From positions 1 through 41,719 of IMG/VR virus record IMGVR_UViG_3300020045_018018: a stretch of 41,719 nt of DNA; one strand, written 5' to 3'. Of this stretch, positions 2,104 to 28,471 are shown piece by piece. The notes under the pieces were generated by a model, which was not told where the DNA came from, ran no database searches, and saw nothing but the letters and a program-made list of their open reading frames with translations. This DNA is from a virus (taxonomy: Duplodnaviria; Caudoviricetes). Position 1 is the first letter of the stretch. Every line of letters starts with the position of its first letter. Position numbers and translations under genes: made by a program.

Positions 2104-4075
2104 TCCTAATTTAAATCAATTGGAATTTATTCAAAATCAATTTAAAAAATTAACTTCAAAAAAATCAATAATTTTACCGAGTCAATATGTTGAAAGTGTT
2201 AGATATTTGGATAAAGAAATTTCTCCGGCTCTTCCGGGATTTTATCGTTTTGATAATACGCCATACTGGAAAGAACCGCTTGATATGTTAAGTCCCTTAT
2301 CCGATGTTCAGGAAGTTGTTATAGTCAAGGGTGTACAAATAGGATTCAGCACAGGAGTTTTGGAAAATATCATTGCATATAATATTGGCTGTGATCCTAA
2401 GCCGCAATTATTTATAACAACTGATAAAGAATTGATGCAAACAACGATGGAAGTTAAGATTGAAAAAATGATAGACTCTTGCAATCTAAGAGATAAAATA
2501 TTTTCACAAACAAAACAAAAATCAAAAAAAACAGGCGATACGACTTTTAAAAAGCAATATGTCGGCGGGTATTTAACCGGAATCGGATCACAAAATCCAG
2601 GTAAACTTAGATCAATGACGTATCCAGTAATTCTTATGGACGAACTTGACTCATTTCCGCTAAAATTAAAAGGGGAAGGGAATCCTGTAACTATTGCCAG
2701 TCATAGAGCCGATTCAGTCGGAGACAAACGAAAAATATTATATGGATCAACCCCTTTAATTTTACAATCTAGCAAAATATGGGAACTTTTTTTAAAAGGG
2801 GATCAAAGATATTTTTTTGTTCCTTGCAAATTTTGTGGAGAAATGCAAATTCTTAAATGGCATGGCGTTACAGAAGACGGCAAACAATATGGAATTGTTT
2901 TTGAAGTCGAAAAAGGCAAACCAATTCATGAAACTGTCGGGTACAAATGCCCTTATTGTGAAAAAATAATGAAAAATCATGATAAATCAATAATTTTTGA
3001 AAAAGGAGAATGGCGACCTACAAAAAAAAGTGAAAAAAGAGGATTGGTAAGTTATCAAATCTCAACTCTATATTCTTCGCCGGCAATGTTTCCCTGGGAA
3101 AAGATTGTTGAAGAATGGTCGGCTGCATGGGATATTGAAAAAAATAGACTTCGAGATAAAGAAAAATATAGAGAATTCAGAAATTTAATGCAAGGCTTAC
3201 CTTATGAAGAAATGGGGCAATCCATAAAATCCGAGCGTGCGCAATTACATCGGAGAGGAATTTACTTAAAAAATCAGATACCGAATTCAATAATAATCCA
3301 GGAAACCGGATCCCCGATATTATTTACAACAGCAGCAATCGACTGTCAAAAAAATAATATTTTTGCTGATATAAAAGCCTGGGCGCAAAATGGAATTAAC
3401 TATACACTTGATTTTTTTTCTATCGAAGGTGAAGTCGAAAAATATAATTCGGCATTATGGCAGGAACTTGATAAATTATTAACAACAAAAACATGGATTG
3501 CGGACGATGGGAAAATATATAAAATTAATCAAACGGTTATAGATTCTGGGCATTATACAGACTATGTTTATGAATTTTGTAAGCAATATTCCGGTGGTGT
3601 TTATGCCGTTAAAGGGCGCGATTTCCTCGAAGGCGGAATAACCTTTAAAAAATTTTCAAAAGAAACTCTCGACAAAGCAGGGCTTCCGATCGCGTTTCTT
3701 GTTAACACAACAAAATTAAAAGATCATATTGCGGTCATGTTGCAGAAATTACAATGGGATTCAGGACAATTGCAACCTCCATTTTATCCTAATTTTCCTG
3801 AAGACATGCGCGACGATTATTTCAAAATGTTCGAATCTGAAAGCAAAAAAGAAATAATTGACAGTGTTACGAATAAGTGGATTAAAACTATTTGGATTCA
3901 AAAACATGGATCGGAAAATCACGCCTTCGATTCTTTCTGTTATTCATTGAGTAATGTCGAAATTTTAGCCGATGCGGTTTGTAGAAATTACCTTGAATTA
4001 CCGGCATTGGATTGGACTCAATTTTGGGAATTCGCAAAACAAGGATATTTTTATCAAGAGCCAGACAAAAAATAA
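2096..4075 (+). CDS. Terminase large subunit, lambda GpA family
   Basis: TPYWKEPLD, KGVQIGFST Walker A-like, ILMDELD Walker B, YGSTP, GDQRYFFVPCKFCGEMQ, NHAFDSFCY. Confidence 0.95.
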   Translation: MINPNLNQLEFIQNQFKKLTSKKSIILPSQYVESVRYLDKEISPALPGFYRFDNTPYWKEPLDMLSPLSDVQEVVIVKGVQIGFSTGVLENIIAYNIGCDPKPQLFITTDKELMQTTMEVKIEKMIDSCNLRDKIFSQTKQKSKKTGDTTFKKQYVGGYLTGIGSQNPGKLRSMTYPVILMDELDSFPLKLKGEGNPVTIASHRADSVGDKRKILYGSTPLILQSSKIWELFLKGDQRYFFVPCKFCGEMQILKWHGVTEDGKQYGIVFEVEKGKPIHETVGYKCPYCEKIMKNHDKSIIFEKGEWRPTKKSEKRGLVSYQISTLYSSPAMFPWEKIVEEWSAAWDIEKNRLRDKEKYREFRNLMQGLPYEEMGQSIKSERAQLHRRGIYLKNQIPNSIIIQETGSPILFTTAAIDCQKNNIFADIKAWAQNGINYTLDFFSIEGEVEKYNSALWQELDKLLTTKTWIADDGKIYKINQTVIDSGHYTDYVYEFCKQYSGGVYAVKGRDFLEGGITFKKFSKETLDKAGLPIAFLVNTTKLKDHIAVMLQKLQWDSGQLQPPFYPNFPEDMRDDYFKMFESESKKEIIDSVTNKWIKTIWIQKHGSENHAFDSFCYSLSNVEILADAVCRNYLELPALDWTQFWEFAKQGYFYQEPDKK

Positions 4076-18716: not shown

Positions 18717-19982
18717 ATGAGCAAAACTCATGAAGTTAAATTAAAAGAGACTCTCGGTAAAATTTCTATAAAATATTATGGTCTATTTTCAAAATGGACT
18801 TCCATAAGAAATGCAAACCCTCAATTAGTCGGACGCAATAAGGCAATTGACGGCAGTCCTTTAATTTATCCAGGCGATATTTTAATTATTCCCGATGAAC
18901 AACCGGTAAATAAAATTGCTCTAAAAATACCGGCATTGAATACTGATGAACTTGCTATTATTGTTGATGGAAATAGATTTAATTATTTTACAGAATATTC
19001 ACTTATTCAGGAAATGGATGCATTTGATTCATTTTCTTTTTCAGCGCCTTTTGACGATACGAATGAAACTTTTATAAATTCGTTTAAGCCTTTTTCATAT
19101 AAACAATGTCAAGTTTATTATGGTGGAGATTTGTTTTTTAACGGGATTTTGCTAGCTCCCCAGACAGAGGCAAATTCAACTTCAAAAATATTAACTTTGA
19201 CAGGTTATCCAAAATGTGGAGTTTTGAACGATTGCCCGTTACCGATTTCAATGTTCCCGTGCGAATTTAACAATCAAGATTTAAAACAAATTGCCTCAAA
19301 AATGATACAACCTTTTAATATTGATATTGATTTTTCAGAAAGTCCGGGTAATAAATTTGAAAAAGTCACTCCAAAAATGGAAGAAAAAATATTAAGTTTT
19401 TTGATCAATCTTGCAGAACAGCGGGATTTAATAATATCAAACAATATCGAAGGAAATTTATTATTTTGGAAAACAAAAACCGGATCAACTATTGCGGAAA
19501 TTAAACAAGATGAAACTCCGTTTTTATCTTGCAAACCGACTTTTAATCCTCAAGATTTTTATTCGCATATTACCGGCGTTAATGCTACTTCCGAAAAAAA
19601 ATTAAGTCAAAAATATACTTATGAAAATACCTATCTTACAAAATTGGGAGTTTTTCGCCCTTATATTTTTTTGGTTCAAGATGCAAAAGAAATGGACATA
19701 AAAAAGGCAACTATAACAAAAGCCGGAAAAATGTTTGGAAGTTCATGCGGCTATCAATTAACTTTAGCAGGTCATCGAGATAAAAATAAAAATTTCTGGA
19801 GAAAAAATACACTAATTATGTTAGAATCTCCCGGGGCGATGATTTACAAAAATACAAAATTTATGATAAAAAAAGTTACAACTTCCAGGACTTCGGAAGG
19901 CGGAGATACAACTATTTTAGATTTGGTTTTGCCGGAGTCATATAGCGGAGTGATTCCAAATAATTTTCCCTGGGAAAAATAA
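18717..19982 (+). CDS. LysM-containing baseplate hub protein (Mu gp44/GpP-like)
   Basis: N-terminal LysM (ETLGKISIKYYG...IRNANP...IYPGDILIIP) followed by hub-like region. Confidence 0.85.
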   Translation: MSKTHEVKLKETLGKISIKYYGLFSKWTSIRNANPQLVGRNKAIDGSPLIYPGDILIIPDEQPVNKIALKIPALNTDELAIIVDGNRFNYFTEYSLIQEMDAFDSFSFSAPFDDTNETFINSFKPFSYKQCQVYYGGDLFFNGILLAPQTEANSTSKILTLTGYPKCGVLNDCPLPISMFPCEFNNQDLKQIASKMIQPFNIDIDFSESPGNKFEKVTPKMEEKILSFLINLAEQRDLIISNNIEGNLLFWKTKTGSTIAEIKQDETPFLSCKPTFNPQDFYSHITGVNATSEKKLSQKYTYENTYLTKLGVFRPYIFLVQDAKEMDIKKATITKAGKMFGSSCGYQLTLAGHRDKNKNFWRKNTLIMLESPGAMIYKNTKFMIKKVTTSRTSEGGDTTILDLVLPESYSGVIPNNFPWEK

Positions 19983-19992
19983 AGGTGAAAAT

Positions 19993-20613
19993 ATGGGTAA
20001 AATTGCGAGAATTATTTCAAGTAAAATTGAAGATGATAAAATAATATGCAAATGTGAAATTTATCCTGATTATAACGTTCAGGCTCAATTATATTTGCCG
20101 CCGGGTGAAAGTTCAATGCCATTACCGGACGATAGAACATTATTAGTAGAAATGGAAGGATCAGGAATTTTTATCGCCTGCGGATTATGGTCAACGGCGC
20201 AAACAGTTGAAAAAGGTGAAAAATTATCATTTTCACGGGACGCAAACGGTAATATAAAATCAAGTATTTATCAAAAAAAAGACGGTAAAATTGTTATAAA
20301 TGCCGATAAAGAAATTGATATTTCAGGTGATAAAAAATTGATAATTGACATGATCGAAGATGTTGAAATTAAATCAGATGGTAATTTAAAGTTGATGGAA
20401 GGCACTGACTTTTCCTGTCGGTATAACGAACTAAAATCAAAACTTGATGATTTAAAATTGGCATTAAATAATTTTATATCAGTTTATAATTCGCACACTC
20501 ACACAATACCGACAGGTAATTCAGGGCAACCTAGTGCAACCGGAGTAAGCGCCACAACGGATTTTTCAAATGTAAAAATATCAAATATAAATGTTCCAGG
20601 AGTAGGAGAATGA
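19993..20613 (+). CDS. Baseplate spike (Mu gp45/gpV-like)
   Basis: PPGESSMP; C-terminal YNSHTH metal-binding tip. Confidence 0.8.
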   Translation: MGKIARIISSKIEDDKIICKCEIYPDYNVQAQLYLPPGESSMPLPDDRTLLVEMEGSGIFIACGLWSTAQTVEKGEKLSFSRDANGNIKSSIYQKKDGKIVINADKEIDISGDKKLIIDMIEDVEIKSDGNLKLMEGTDFSCRYNELKSKLDDLKLALNNFISVYNSHTHTIPTGNSGQPSATGVSATTDFSNVKISNINVPGVGE

Positions 20614-21098: not shown

Positions 21099-22316
21099 AT
21101 GGCATTTGAAAATAAAACCTTAGCCGAAATAAACGATTTAATCATAACTCAATTCGAAAGCCAATTCAGTAAAGTATTTCCTATTTTGCCAAAATCTTTT
21201 TTAAGGGTTTTGTCAAAAGTTTTATCCGCTGTTTTTATTTTACTTTATAAGTCGGCGGGTTGGATTTTTCTTCAAATTTTCGTTTCGACTGCAAGTTTTA
21301 AAGAAATTGAAATTTTAGGAAAAAAATTAACCCCATTGATTGAGTGGGGGAGACTTGTCGGAACTGGTGACCCGATTCCCGCAACACAATTCGAATGTAC
21401 TATATTAATAACTGTTAATTCTGCAGGATCAATCTTATATTCCGGGACTCAATTTCAATCAAGCCTCAATAACGTCTTATATATTACCACAGAAAATTAC
21501 ACATTAACCGGCGCAACAATGTCAATTAATGTTTTGGCGGTCGATGCTGGTACTCAAGGAAATTTAGAAGTTTCCGACATTTTAAGCCTTGTTAATACGA
21601 TTGGCATTATTGAAAATGATGCAACAATTACAACGATTTTGACAACGGCGATTGATACCGAAGATGAGGCAGATTATAGACAACGTGTAAGCGAAAGATT
21701 TCAATTACAACCTCAAGGCGGGGCTTATGCCGATTATAGAATCTGGGCTTCCGAAGTACCGGGCGTGAAACAAACTTATATTTATGCGGGCGATCCTCCT
21801 TCAAATGTTCTTGTTTATGTTGCAGGTGATGAAGAAATTTATCCAGACAGAATCCCAAATTCCGCCTTATTATTAGCGGTTGCAAATGCAATTGAATACG
21901 ATCCTGATACGACATTAGCAACCAGGCGACCTATCGGGGCGGTAATTGATCCTGCCGGTGATGGGTCATATACAAATATTCAGGCAATTTCTATTGTGAT
22001 TTTTGATGTTGAAATCACATCATTATCGGTAGATACGGCATTATTAGCACAGGTAAAAATCGACATTAAAGCAGCATTACAGGCTTATTTCCTTGAAAGA
22101 GAGCCGTACATCGAAGGGCTTTCAATCCCGCCAAAAAAAGGTGATATAACACAATCAAACGTTATCGGAATTGTTAATAATATTGTCCGTACAAATTCAG
22201 GAACTTTTTTAACTTGTTTAAATAGCATTTTGGGCGTTTCGACAACAAATTATTCATTATTACAAGGAGAGCTTGCAAAATTAGGAACTTTGACGATAAA
22301 TGGAGTTGTGGTATGA
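21099..22316 (+). CDS. Baseplate J / Mu gp47-like wedge protein
   Basis: AGTQGN, DTEDEADYRQRV, PQGGAYADYRIWASEVPGV. Confidence 0.92.
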   Translation: MAFENKTLAEINDLIITQFESQFSKVFPILPKSFLRVLSKVLSAVFILLYKSAGWIFLQIFVSTASFKEIEILGKKLTPLIEWGRLVGTGDPIPATQFECTILITVNSAGSILYSGTQFQSSLNNVLYITTENYTLTGATMSINVLAVDAGTQGNLEVSDILSLVNTIGIIENDATITTILTTAIDTEDEADYRQRVSERFQLQPQGGAYADYRIWASEVPGVKQTYIYAGDPPSNVLVYVAGDEEIYPDRIPNSALLLAVANAIEYDPDTTLATRRPIGAVIDPAGDGSYTNIQAISIVIFDVEITSLSVDTALLAQVKIDIKAALQAYFLEREPYIEGLSIPPKKGDITQSNVIGIVNNIVRTNSGTFLTCLNSILGVSTTNYSLLQGELAKLGTLTINGVVV

Positions 22317-25938: not shown

Positions 25939-26121
25939 TTAAAATATAAATTTAAAAATCAGTCCTACCAACAATAAAATAGAAATAACAATAAAAATAT
26001 CCCGCTGCCTTGCTACCGATAAGGTTAATTTCTTTGTTCTTTGAAAAACGTCTGTATCGGCAATATTATCAATTCTGGTTCGATACATTTTACGAAATTT
26101 TTTGCTTTGTTTATTTGACAT
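25939..26121 (-). CDS. Small protein with C-terminal TM segment
   Basis: ATG 26121 after AGGAG; hydrophobic C-terminus. Confidence 0.6.
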   Translation of the reverse strand: MSNKQSKKFRKMYRTRIDNIADTDVFQRTKKLTLSVARQRDIFIVISILLLVGLIFKFIF

Positions 26122-26587
26122 TGGCAACAACTCCTTTTAATGATTTGTGAATGTTCGCATGGCATTGCGGACAAACCCATATAACTTCTAATGGTTTTGA
26201 ATAATCAAAATGATGACCTTGAATATTATTTGTTTTATTACATTTAGAACATTGTTTAGGTTTTATTATTTTACCGTCACGAATTGCATTTGATAATTTA
26301 TTTTGTGCAAGCCGTTTATATTTATTGTTATTTTCCCATTTTAATTTATGAATTTTAATCTTTTCAGGGTTATTTAAAGCATAGATTTTGCAATTATTTT
26401 TTCTTTTTAATAATTTCCCTCTTTCCCTATCATAATTTCTGACATAATCTATATTATTATTTCTTTCATTTCTTGACCTTTCTTTTGTACACTCTTTACA
26501 TTCGTTTAAATACCCATCTTTCATCATTGAATGTTTGTAAAAACAATCTTTTGGCTTATTCTTTTTGCATTTAATACAAGTTTTCAT
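26111..26587 (-). CDS. HNH-type endonuclease with Zn fingers
   Basis: CIKC...CKEC; CSKC...GHHFDYSKPLEVIWVCPQCHANIH. Confidence 0.8.
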   Translation of the reverse strand: MKTCIKCKKNKPKDCFYKHSMMKDGYLNECKECTKERSRNERNNNIDYVRNYDRERGKLLKRKNNCKIYALNNPEKIKIHKLKWENNNKYKRLAQNKLSNAIRDGKIIKPKQCSKCNKTNNIQGHHFDYSKPLEVIWVCPQCHANIHKSLKGVVANVK

Positions 26588-26602: not shown

Positions 26603-27079
26603 TTAAAAAGGAATAGAATTATCTATATCACTATTTTCATTTTCTTCCGGTTCTGGTTGCGAACTTTGATTTTTAAACGGATTTCCTGATTGACCAGAAT
26701 TATTATTATTCGGCTTATTTTCGGGTTTATTGCCTTGATTTTCTTCGTTTTTAGTATTCAAAAATTGAATATTATTAGCAATAATCATAATTTTTGATTT
26801 TTTATTTCCAGAATCATCCATCCAACGATCTTGTTTTAATTGACCTTCAACGGCAATTTTATTTCCTTTTTTTAGATATTTATTGCAAACTTCAGATAAA
26901 TTATTCCAGCATTGAATATCAAAAAAATTAACTTGTTTTATTTCTTTTCCATCTTTTGAATAATCTTGATTATTTGCAATCGAAAAATTACAAACGGGAG
27001 TCCCATTTTTTGTATATTTTAATTCAACGTCTTTTGTAAGATTTCCTAAAACAAAACAATTATTTATATCTTTGCTCAC
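26603..27079 (-). CDS. ssb: Single-stranded DNA-binding protein
   Basis: LGNLTKDVELKYT, YLKKGNKIAVEGQL, acidic tail ending IPF; GTG start after GGAGG. Confidence 0.95.
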   Translation of the reverse strand: MSKDINNCFVLGNLTKDVELKYTKNGTPVCNFSIANNQDYSKDGKEIKQVNFFDIQCWNNLSEVCNKYLKKGNKIAVEGQLKQDRWMDDSGNKKSKIMIIANNIQFLNTKNEENQGNKPENKPNNNNSGQSGNPFKNQSSQPEPEENENSDIDNSIPF

Positions 27080-27272
27080 AAATTCCTCCAAAAACTAATT
27101 TTACATTATGAATATTTTTCATTGCCTGATTATTTGCATTTTTCAAAATTAACATTTCAGAATCGTTATAATTTACATGATCTTCAAAAACAATTCTTCG
27201 TTCATCGTTTTCAGTGAATTTTATTTTGTAATTTAATCCGAGTTTTTCTGAAAAATAAATTTTATCAGACAT
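27060..27272 (-). CDS. Hypothetical protein
   Basis: RBS AAGGA; FEDHVNY..SE...IHNVKLVFGG. Confidence 0.7.
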   Translation of the reverse strand: MSDKIYFSEKLGLNYKIKFTENDERRIVFEDHVNYNDSEMLILKNANNQAMKNIHNVKLVFGGICEQRYK

Positions 27273-27299
27273 AAAAATAAATCCTTAAAAATATAAAAA

Positions 27300-27440
27300 A
27301 GCAGAGGCAAGAAATTTCATCTTACAATATCGGGTTGATATGGCTAGTAAGGTTTTATTTTTCAACCGATTAACGCTTAGCCGAGGATTTTCACCTCAGC
27401 GATTCCCATACTCAATAATGTTTTATTCCATCACTCTGCT
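27300..27440 (-). ncRNA. tRNA-like structured RNA (element C)
   Basis: AGCAGAG/CTCTGCT acceptor-like stem, TG linker, ATG/CAT D-like arm, GCTGAGG-tgaaaat-CCTCGGC hairpin, 9-bp stem with 23-nt loop, GTAAGA-tgaaatt-TCTTGC T-like arm. Confidence 0.65.
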
Positions 27441-27450
27441 TTTATTTTTT

Positions 27451-28107
27451 TCATTCAACCACAACCCCAGTAACTAGCCATTTTGCCGTGAAAATAAATT
27501 TTGCATATTGATAATCGTGATACCCTGGGCTTGCAAGATGGGTTATAGCATCAAAAGGATTAGAATATCCTTGTTTCCAATCAATTTTGCCTTCATTATC
27601 TGTCAATACCCAAACCAAACCAGGTTGACCGTATTGGCAACTTGCTGATTGCCATTGGTAGGGAGAATTATGAGCTCGTATTTGAAAACTCGCATTTCCA
27701 TGATAACCATCAATAAGACTAAAATCAATAGCGATATAAGCCATACCTCCGCCGGTAATTGAAGACAGGTCTAAGGTGTGAATCACGGAATCAGCATTAT
27801 AAGAATTGTTCCAATAAAACCATCCATTATTAAAATCATCGGCGACATCAACTGGATTAATGTCAAGATACCCATTAGCGCCGTCAGTTGTCAATTCGCT
27901 TGCGACCGGGTCATTTGTAGAAATAGATTTTTGCAAGCCGGATAAACTAATATTTTTTGATGAACTCAAAACTGGATAAATTTGAGTGTTAATAAATTTC
28001 GTCACTGAATTTTCAGTTTTTATAACAGTTTGTGTTTCTTTTACCTCCCCTGCCGGACTACACGAAAAAAATAATAGCGTAATAAATAAAAAAATTAAAT
28101 ATTTCAT
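27451..28107 (-). CDS. Lipoprotein, hypothetical
   Basis: Signal MKYLIFLFITLLFFS-C; RBS GGAGG; beta-rich C-terminal domain. Confidence 0.8.
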   Translation of the reverse strand: MKYLIFLFITLLFFSCSPAGEVKETQTVIKTENSVTKFINTQIYPVLSSSKNISLSGLQKSISTNDPVASELTTDGANGYLDINPVDVADDFNNGWFYWNNSYNADSVIHTLDLSSITGGGMAYIAIDFSLIDGYHGNASFQIRAHNSPYQWQSASCQYGQPGLVWVLTDNEGKIDWKQGYSNPFDAITHLASPGYHDYQYAKFIFTAKWLVTGVVVE

Positions 28108-28140
28108 TTTAAACCTCCGTTTAAATTTTATCTAATAAAA

Positions 28141-28250
28141 CAGTAAAGACAGGATTCGAACCTGCGTGACCTTTCGTCAAACGATTTATAGCAATCGTTC
28201 TACTCAGTCTCTATCTATAATCACCGTTATAACCTCTCCGGCACTTTACT
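28141..28250 (-). ncRNA. Class II tRNA-like RNA with expanded anticodon arm (element A; Ser-like)
   Basis: AGTAAAG/CTTTACT acceptor, G discriminator, CCG-GAGAGGTTATAA-CGG D arm, TGAC-gaaag-GTCA variable arm, GCAGG-TTCGAAT-CCTGT T arm; 110 nt, no encoded CCA. Confidence 0.75.
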
Positions 28251-28261
28251 CATATTATAAA

Positions 28262-28317
28262 AAGCAAGATTAACTTAATTTTCCCTGGGGAGTACAAAAA
28301 TTTTATTAACCTCGCTT
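28262..28317 (-). ncRNA. Hairpin element between tRNA-like RNAs (element D)
   Basis: AAGCGAGGTTAA pairs with TTAATCTTGCTT (12 bp, two G-U pairs favouring the minus strand). Confidence 0.4.
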
Positions 28318-28347
28318 ATTTTTAAAACTTTTAGAACAAATATAAAA

Positions 28348-28471
28348 AGCAGAGACGGGATTTGAACCCGCATATATAGACCCGAATCGATCTATGTGTT
28401 ACCATTTTAAAAATCATTCATAGCCTTGCTAGCAAACCACGCCTTATTTTAAAATATTTCACCACTCTGCT
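28348..28471 (-). ncRNA. tRNA-like RNA with long D-loop insertion (element B)
   Basis: AGCAGAG/CTCTGCT acceptor, GTG-AAAT[insert]GGTAA-CAC D arm, ATAGA/TCTAT stem with non-canonical loop, GCGGG-TTCAAAT-CCCGT T arm. Confidence 0.75.

Follow-up and report, generated by a model that had tools for sequence, protein, structure and literature searches.

Element C, a tRNA-shaped RNA encoded on the minus strand of a myovirus (27299..27440), appears from its sequence, by a narrow balance of probability, to be an antisense RNA, probably released by RNase P, which would block translation of the next gene, ORF70, by pairing with its ribosome-binding site (RBS). This reading is based on the tRNA frame of C, on two matches between a 23-nt segment within it, loop C (27339..27361, minus strand), and the sequences on either side of the element, and on the statistics of these matches; from them we infer the steps of the mechanism. 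Both target sites of loop C are defined to the base.

Anatomy of the cassette behind recT

The window, by which we mean the whole stretch of DNA analysed (a virus record of 41,719 bases), carries myovirus head and tail genes on its plus strand and recE/recT, ssb, a helicase, a primase and methylases on its minus strand. The SSB and the lipobox of this phage have what we take to be a spirochaete-like look; a RecT profile search of species genomes found no prophage. Between the stop of recT (28477) and the start of ORF70 (27272) lie, in minus-strand order, element B, hairpin D, element A, a gene for a predicted lipoprotein, and element C. In the closest relative (L001, whose RecT is 65% identical), a short hairpin and then ORF70 follow directly after recT, and in another (L018) ORF70 is present without a tRNA frame ahead of it; the 1.2-kb cassette is thus accessory. 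A blastn search with the cassette against 50,697 phage records gave just three short matches, at chance level. ARAGORN and Rfam (at gathering score) made no call anywhere in the window; ARAGORN at a lowered threshold returned noise only, and Rfam at E ≤ 10 gave eight matches between 27200 and 28600, no C4 model among them. The genes downstream of C are ORF70 (27060..27272, minus strand; 70 aa, no family), which overlaps the start of ssb and is the predicted regulated gene, followed by ssb and an endonuclease; no antirepressor was called there, and an Atlas search with ORF70 gave no usable match.

None of A, B and C has a normal anticodon arm. C has an acceptor stem of 7 bp identical to that of B, a short D arm without the GG pair, a T arm in which a 6-bp stem carries a T-type but non-canonical loop of 7 nt, a swollen centre, no encoded CCA and a U run behind it; it folds at z = -3.5 (1 of 200 shuffles). 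Because its D and T loops are non-canonical, cleavage by RNase P is not assured. The most stable part of its centre is an internal hairpin with a second T-type 7-nt loop (27381..27399, minus strand). The two T-type loops of C (27381-27399 and 27307-27325) could dock together or bind a tRNA elbow; T-type loops occur in riboswitches and RNase P. Neither blastn of the 50,697 phage records nor a C-like pattern search (0 loci) turned up an ortholog of C that could show covariation.

B (28347..28471, minus strand) folds at z = -4.2 (0 of 200 shuffles). It has a 7-bp acceptor, a canonical T arm, a U run behind and no encoded CCA; its D loop carries an inserted stem-loop of 52 nt (28455-28404), and its anticodon arm is non-canonical. 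The insert has no target above shuffles in the genome, the gene starts, the flanks or the relatives. A search with a B-like pattern found no locus, and one with a B/L029-type pattern a single locus. Hairpin D, between B and A (28262..28317, minus strand), has a 12-bp terminator-like stem and a loop of about 32 nt; a perfect 14-nt antisense match of this loop to 19961-19974, which adjoins the RBS of the gene at 19993, is borderline (3/100 shuffles by energy, 7/100 by length, 27/100 for the best of all starts) and was not accepted. An AT-rich short palindrome followed by the same four bases occurs before B (28484-28470), at the start of the B insert (28455-28443) and before D (28327-28314), and may mark cassette junctions.

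The predicted lipoprotein, between A and C (27451..28107, minus strand; 218 aa), has 23 remote homologs, with which it forms an uncharacterised family of 24 members; Cys16 is kept in at least 90% of the 24 aligned rows. Its model is beta-rich (pLDDT 78), with only weak, jelly-roll-type Foldseek matches and no PDB match at E ≤ 0.001; single-sequence folding is poor (pLDDT 43). Searches with it found no locus and no usable Atlas match, and five related records contained no full-length homolog; in G001, a 38-aa stub shares the leader and matches the lipoprotein over the size of a signal peptide. One of the lipoprotein homologs, P0042, and the ORF70 homolog P0063 are each encoded on a JGI contig of 2,641 bases, and the two may belong to a single cassette.

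Sixteen metagenome loci were scanned, and one of them (L029) has another anticodon-less tRNA frame in the same place. This frame (L029:999-1088), with D and T arms like those of B, lies directly before a minor tail gene and passes the Rfam tRNA model at 40.8 bits. A different intergenic module recurs after recT in seven related phage loci (L023:6920-7170, L024:3400-3700, L028:6890-7100, L029:600-1000, L051:2830-3000, L054:1890-2090 and L055:9800-10000); it is composed of a promoter-like motif, a similar-ended hairpin, mostly a Shine-Dalgarno (SD) sequence with a tiny ORF, and a terminator-like stem. By its sequence it looks like a conserved small RNA or a toxin-antitoxin-like leader; it was not seen in the cassette of the window.

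Predicted pairing of loop C with its flanks

Compared with its own 60-nt flanks, loop C shows a two-piece match of 21/23, a score that 2 of 8,000 loop shuffles attained (5 of the 8,000 when either order of the pieces was allowed) and none of 3,000 flank shuffles did; this two-piece (split) test was devised once the matches were known, and about 20 segment-target pairs were tried. Among 16,568 native 23-mers in the same geometry, taken every 5 bases on both strands, one reached 21, and it is loop C itself. When all 23-mers in the 93-nt centre of C are scanned, the best (27362-27340, 22/23; 0 of 400 shuffles) falls one base off the loop that an initial annotation had drawn from the sequence and had proposed to be a guide-like segment; as a pairing segment, this loop is borne out. 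The segment divides into 27362-27348, which matches the RBS of ORF70, and 27348-27340, which matches a site upstream of C, so that the two halves abut, and they match in collinear order (21-22/23, vs 17-18/23 for the reverse order). No such own-flank match was found in A (136/150 shuffles), in B (55/150) or in 12 other tRNA-frame RNAs (none below 2/40).

The downstream target (27273..27287, minus strand) covers the SD site and the spacer directly before the ORF70 start codon (27272) and is complementary at 14/15 positions (12 of 2,000 shuffles, p 0.006, for this match alone). As it begins just 12 nt past the acceptor stem of C, pairing with the RBS would more likely be in trans. In a second register, loop C matches the start codon and the first eight codons of ORF70 (27249..27273, minus strand; 20/26 columns), as did 10 of 2,000 shuffles; both registers together were reached by 1 of 2,000. 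By alignment score, ORF70 ranks first of 56 gene starts, which were hand-picked from 96 ORFs, and by energy it lies outside the top 4. Of 100 shuffles, 16-18 equalled the best alignment score of loop C over all starts. The duplex with the RBS, rich in A-U pairs and interrupted by a central mismatch, has a modest net energy of -8.2 kcal/mol. The ORF70 starts of two relatives without C score 10, vs 13 here.

The upstream target (27463..27481, minus strand) lies within the final codons of the lipoprotein gene, 22-41 nt ahead of C; it pairs at 9/9 positions at 27481-27473 and with six further pairs (two of them G-U) at 27468-27463, which would cover the anti-SD bases of loop C. It forms the best loop C duplex genome-wide (both strands, elements masked), at -19.0 kcal/mol (equalled by 3 of 100 shuffles over the genome and by 1 of 150 in the local test); for the upstream match alone, with the whole 42-nt stem-loop, p is 0.13 by alignment and 0.042 by energy. 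In one calculation, 1.5 kcal/mol is needed to free the bases of C that pair, leaving a net -11.5 kcal/mol upstream vs -8.2 at the RBS. The upstream codons are conserved in the homolog P0039, so they need not be kept for pairing.

The target search compared seven segments with both genome strands (elements masked), with 300-nt flanks and with the 56 gene starts. The initial annotation had seen no target in the window; this holds for A, where none lies above chance, and not for C, whose two targets are both inside it. A search of 204,600 bases of related phages gave best matches of 16/23 and 17/23 for the two loops, the same as for shuffles. Loop C also has a 14-nt same-sense match at a baseplate gene start (21109-21122; 2 of 100 shuffles by length), which scores equally high; it was treated as chance, and it indicates that AT-rich matches arise easily.

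If C acts in this way, it would be transcribed within the leftward operon behind recT and cut by host RNase P at its acceptor stem, its other end being set by the U run or by 3' trimming; the product would be a stable RNA of about 142 nt. Loop C would then pair with the ORF70 RBS on read-through transcripts, giving less ORF70, and ssb, which overlaps ORF70, would be lowered too through coupling (polarity). In the uncut precursor, the upstream site would hold the anti-SD bases and keep C inactive, since the upstream duplex is predicted to be the stronger and includes these bases; C would be turned on either by processing, or by ribosomes that strip the upstream site as they finish the lipoprotein gene.

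An alternative that we consider possible but unlikely holds that all three elements mimic tRNAs without decoding and are kept for their frame alone, and that loop C is an old and now inert inverted copy of the ORF70 start. The frames could flank the lipoprotein gene as terminators and as punctuation for RNase P, or serve as decoys for defence toxins that attack tRNAs. The acceptor, D and T stems are intact and the centres unrelated, as such a role would have it, and B and C lie directly past stop codons and end in U runs, in places where relatives have plain terminator-like hairpins; no targets were found for other A-like RNAs either, and the complement of loop C resembles the first eight codons of ORF70 (20/26). 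However, an inverted copy leaves the 9/9 upstream match unexplained, and likewise the abutting of the two matches, which fill loop C; moreover, the ORF70 start of this phage fits C better than the starts of the two relatives do.

Element A and the geometry proposed to be shared with C

A (28141..28250, minus strand) has a tRNA-Ser-like frame, with a 7-bp acceptor, a G discriminator, a class II D arm, a long variable arm (28179-28167), a canonical T arm (28165-28149) and no encoded CCA. Its fold does not stand out from shuffles (z -0.9), for a slice with part of the acceptor cut off. Our best guess is that it is a stable non-decoding tRNA-Ser mimic, given that SerRS reads the variable arm and G73 (PMC7609411).

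The initial annotation had proposed that A and C present loops of the same length on stems of the same shape, as fixed-length guide-like segments, and that A may switch to a competing fold. Coordinates and sequence of both shapes are right, and both loops measure 23 nt by ruler and by shape finder. The stems of A (28223-28215 / 28191-28182, minus strand) and of C (27370-27362 / 27338-27329, minus strand) can both be drawn as 5 bp, a 3' bulge and 4 bp, but are not identical, maximal extension giving six outer pairs in A and five in C. They also occupy non-equivalent positions: in A the pairing is distal and comes straight after the D arm, at exactly the position of an anticodon stem, whereas in C it is proximal, a local pairing just before the T arm.

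In neither element is this shape the favoured fold. Loop A (28192..28214, minus strand) requires a fold that lies 8-10 kcal/mol above the ensemble, with ensemble probabilities of 1.4e-7 for the open loop and 3.3e-6 for the stem alone, and is thus not predicted to form. The competing fold of A, also described in the initial annotation, is a local hairpin (28180..28199, minus strand) whose pairs form at 0.97-1.0 and which shows a serine-like triplet in a loop of non-canonical size; it leaves about 23 purine-rich bases after the D arm (28223-28200) mostly unpaired. A two-state switch can be drawn for A on the predicted folds. Neither loop A nor the unpaired segment has a target above shuffles in the genome, the gene starts, the flanks or the relatives; A may have one in the host. 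The C shape is a minor predicted fold (0.015-0.022), with a local 4-bp hairpin (0.63) and a helix at the anticodon-stem position (27415-27406 with 27343-27335; 0.05-0.13) as its rivals; the 5' strand of its stem could form five extra pairs with codons 2-3 of ORF70.

How readily the likeness between A and C arises by chance, a caveat already raised with the proposal, depends on the definition. Two random 120-nt windows have exact shape and loop length in common 1.6% of the time. For shuffled centres and 9-bp one-bulge shapes, p is 0.0014 for A-C, and 0.010 if any two of A, B and C may be alike; for a wider shape family it rises to 0.011-0.021 and 0.078-0.145, respectively, and with the whole elements shuffled this wider family gives p 0.13-0.70.

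A motif search with the D arm and T loop of A and an enlarged centre found 15 viral and 5 genome loci, with 17 distinct centres; such frames in many records indicate that the class is widespread, the loci not being orthologs of A. As to the expectation that homologs keep the loop length, none of the 17 centres of these motif-level relatives has a 23-nt loop on such a stem; the searches turned up no true ortholog of A. None of 21 centres matches its own record at p < 0.05 (some records being partial), and 2 of 19 pair with the next start at p = 0.015 by energy, on crude ORF calls, two more having no downstream ORF. Nine of the 17 A-like centres (among L002-L016 and L035-L039) share with A the first three bases that follow the D stem, three of the nine having come from a pattern that required these bases. 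Swollen tRNA frames, at least four in number, also occur in a 168-kb phage (L040:2243-2425 and 2995-3095, L111:10063-10194, L113:744-848); one of them has a B-like D-loop stem with a nested T arm, and a sense SD and start codon in its centre, and another a C-like internal T-type hairpin.

Like C, A and B resemble tRNAs; they are likely processed but do not decode, as members of the one cassette, and the equal 23-nt length in A is most likely a coincidence. A broader reading, which we regard as rather improbable, would make the whole cassette a tRNA-scaffolded antisense array that uses host tRNA processing and shows about 23 nt per RNA; C would gate its own operon and A would be a toehold switch, whose unpaired segment captures the mRNA of the host or of a rival phage and snaps into the C-like long stem.

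Less credible still is a single fixed-length guide system of A and C, in which the bulged stem would offer 23 nt to a protein partner acting on nucleic acid of the host or of rival phages. The A-C shape coincidence (p 0.0014 to 0.021), the 23-nt length of the C pairing segment, coincident with the loop within one base, and the placing of the distal stem of A at the anticodon-stem position all speak for it. Against it are the energetic cost of the A fold, the non-equivalent stem positions, the absence of the loop from all 17 A-like centres and the shuffle-level matches in related phages; nor is there a candidate for an effector protein, the predicted lipoprotein being the only gene inside the cassette and the nearby endonuclease (26111-26587) belonging to a common phage family.

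We give equally little credence to the elements being functionless decayed tRNA genes or integration scars, with the matches of loop C due to chance in an AT-rich genome. The lack of ARAGORN and Rfam matches and of an encoded CCA, the close relatives without the cassette, and the equally high-scoring same-sense match at the baseplate gene start would fit decay; however, the stems are perfect and change is confined to the centre, similar frames occur in 17 other records, once at the same locus in a relative, and the flank match is unique among the 23-mers sampled. That loop C is a splint, aligning a joint that removes the 185 bases between the sites, C included, and swaps the last six lipoprotein residues, is barely credible: the halves do match in transcript order and the joined frame, read by eye, stops at the same length of 218 aa, but there is no splicing motif (the bulge is 1 nt, not 3) and no recombinase in the cassette, and the lipoprotein C-terminus matches that of the homolog P0039, so the joint is not an ancestral empty site.

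Comparison with known systems

The cassette elements differ from known tRNAs and tRNA-like RNAs. Acceptor, D and T arms of the canonical kind are found in A and B, and C deviates from them in its 6-bp T stem and non-canonical loop; a 5-bp anticodon stem with a 7-nt loop, and a call by ARAGORN or RF00005, are found for none. Intron-containing tRNAs have a 4-bp helix between two 3-nt bulges, and removal of the intron restores the 7-nt anticodon loop; in the cassette the bulges are 1 nt, and by inspection there is no way of cutting A that would bring back a canonical loop. YrlA Y RNAs have a permuted tRNA-like domain and Ro60 as partner; the elements here have their ends at the acceptor stem, with no Rfam match and no Ro60 among the window proteins scanned (52 in PHROGs, 22 in Pfam). 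A resembles class II tRNA-Ser (PMC7609411) in its 7/5 branch, class II D arm, long variable arm, G73 and serine-like triplet; it differs in having about 23 extra bases after the D arm and neither a 7-nt anticodon loop nor an encoded CCA. Allo-tRNAs have an 8/4 or 9/3 acceptor branch, and the irregular tRNA clusters described with them include members with an extra loop or a five-stem junction and members that are charged yet unused in translation (PMC5389517). The cassette is likewise a cluster of irregular tRNA-like genes; however, its branches (7/5 in A and B, 7/6 in C) rule out allo-tRNA identity on anatomy, it has no normal anticodon loop, and the main-text parts of PMC5389517 available hold no antisense role.

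The closest parallels to the proposed action of C are in phage regulatory RNAs. The CI RNA of the satellite phage P4 is processed out of a leader transcript, and its partners are seqA, upstream of it, and seqC, downstream (PMC4825925). C, alone among the cassette elements, similarly finds complementary sites on either side of itself within one transcript, but it has a tRNA-type acceptor/D/T frame, is about 142 nt long and lies mid-operon behind a lipoprotein gene in a myovirus, with no Rfam match. In P1, icd is about 70 aa long. The C4 RNA of this phage is cut by RNase P, one of its loops occluding an RBS and the other binding upstream (PMC5320573 and PMC8546580). Like the C4 RNA of P1/P7, C is a predicted RNase P substrate, has a loop that would occlude an RBS and is followed by a short ORF (icd in P1); C4 is 77 nt long with two separate loops, whereas C approaches twice that length and would pair through abutting halves of a single loop. 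C does not match the Rfam covariance models of the C4 family. Like a regulator of the CI/C4 type, it has a loop that would cover the RBS of the downstream gene (14/15, p 0.006; weak by energy rank). No description of tRNA-framed anti-RBS phage RNAs was found in the open-access literature, supplements aside. If the antisense reading of C is true, it would supply a role for a class of phage RNAs that have no anticodon and that escaped tRNA finders and Rfam here, and C would be a natural counterpart of engineered tRNA scaffolds: a phage would have rebuilt a tRNA body as an antisense regulator that follows the logic of P4 CI and P1 C4 but does not share their structure.
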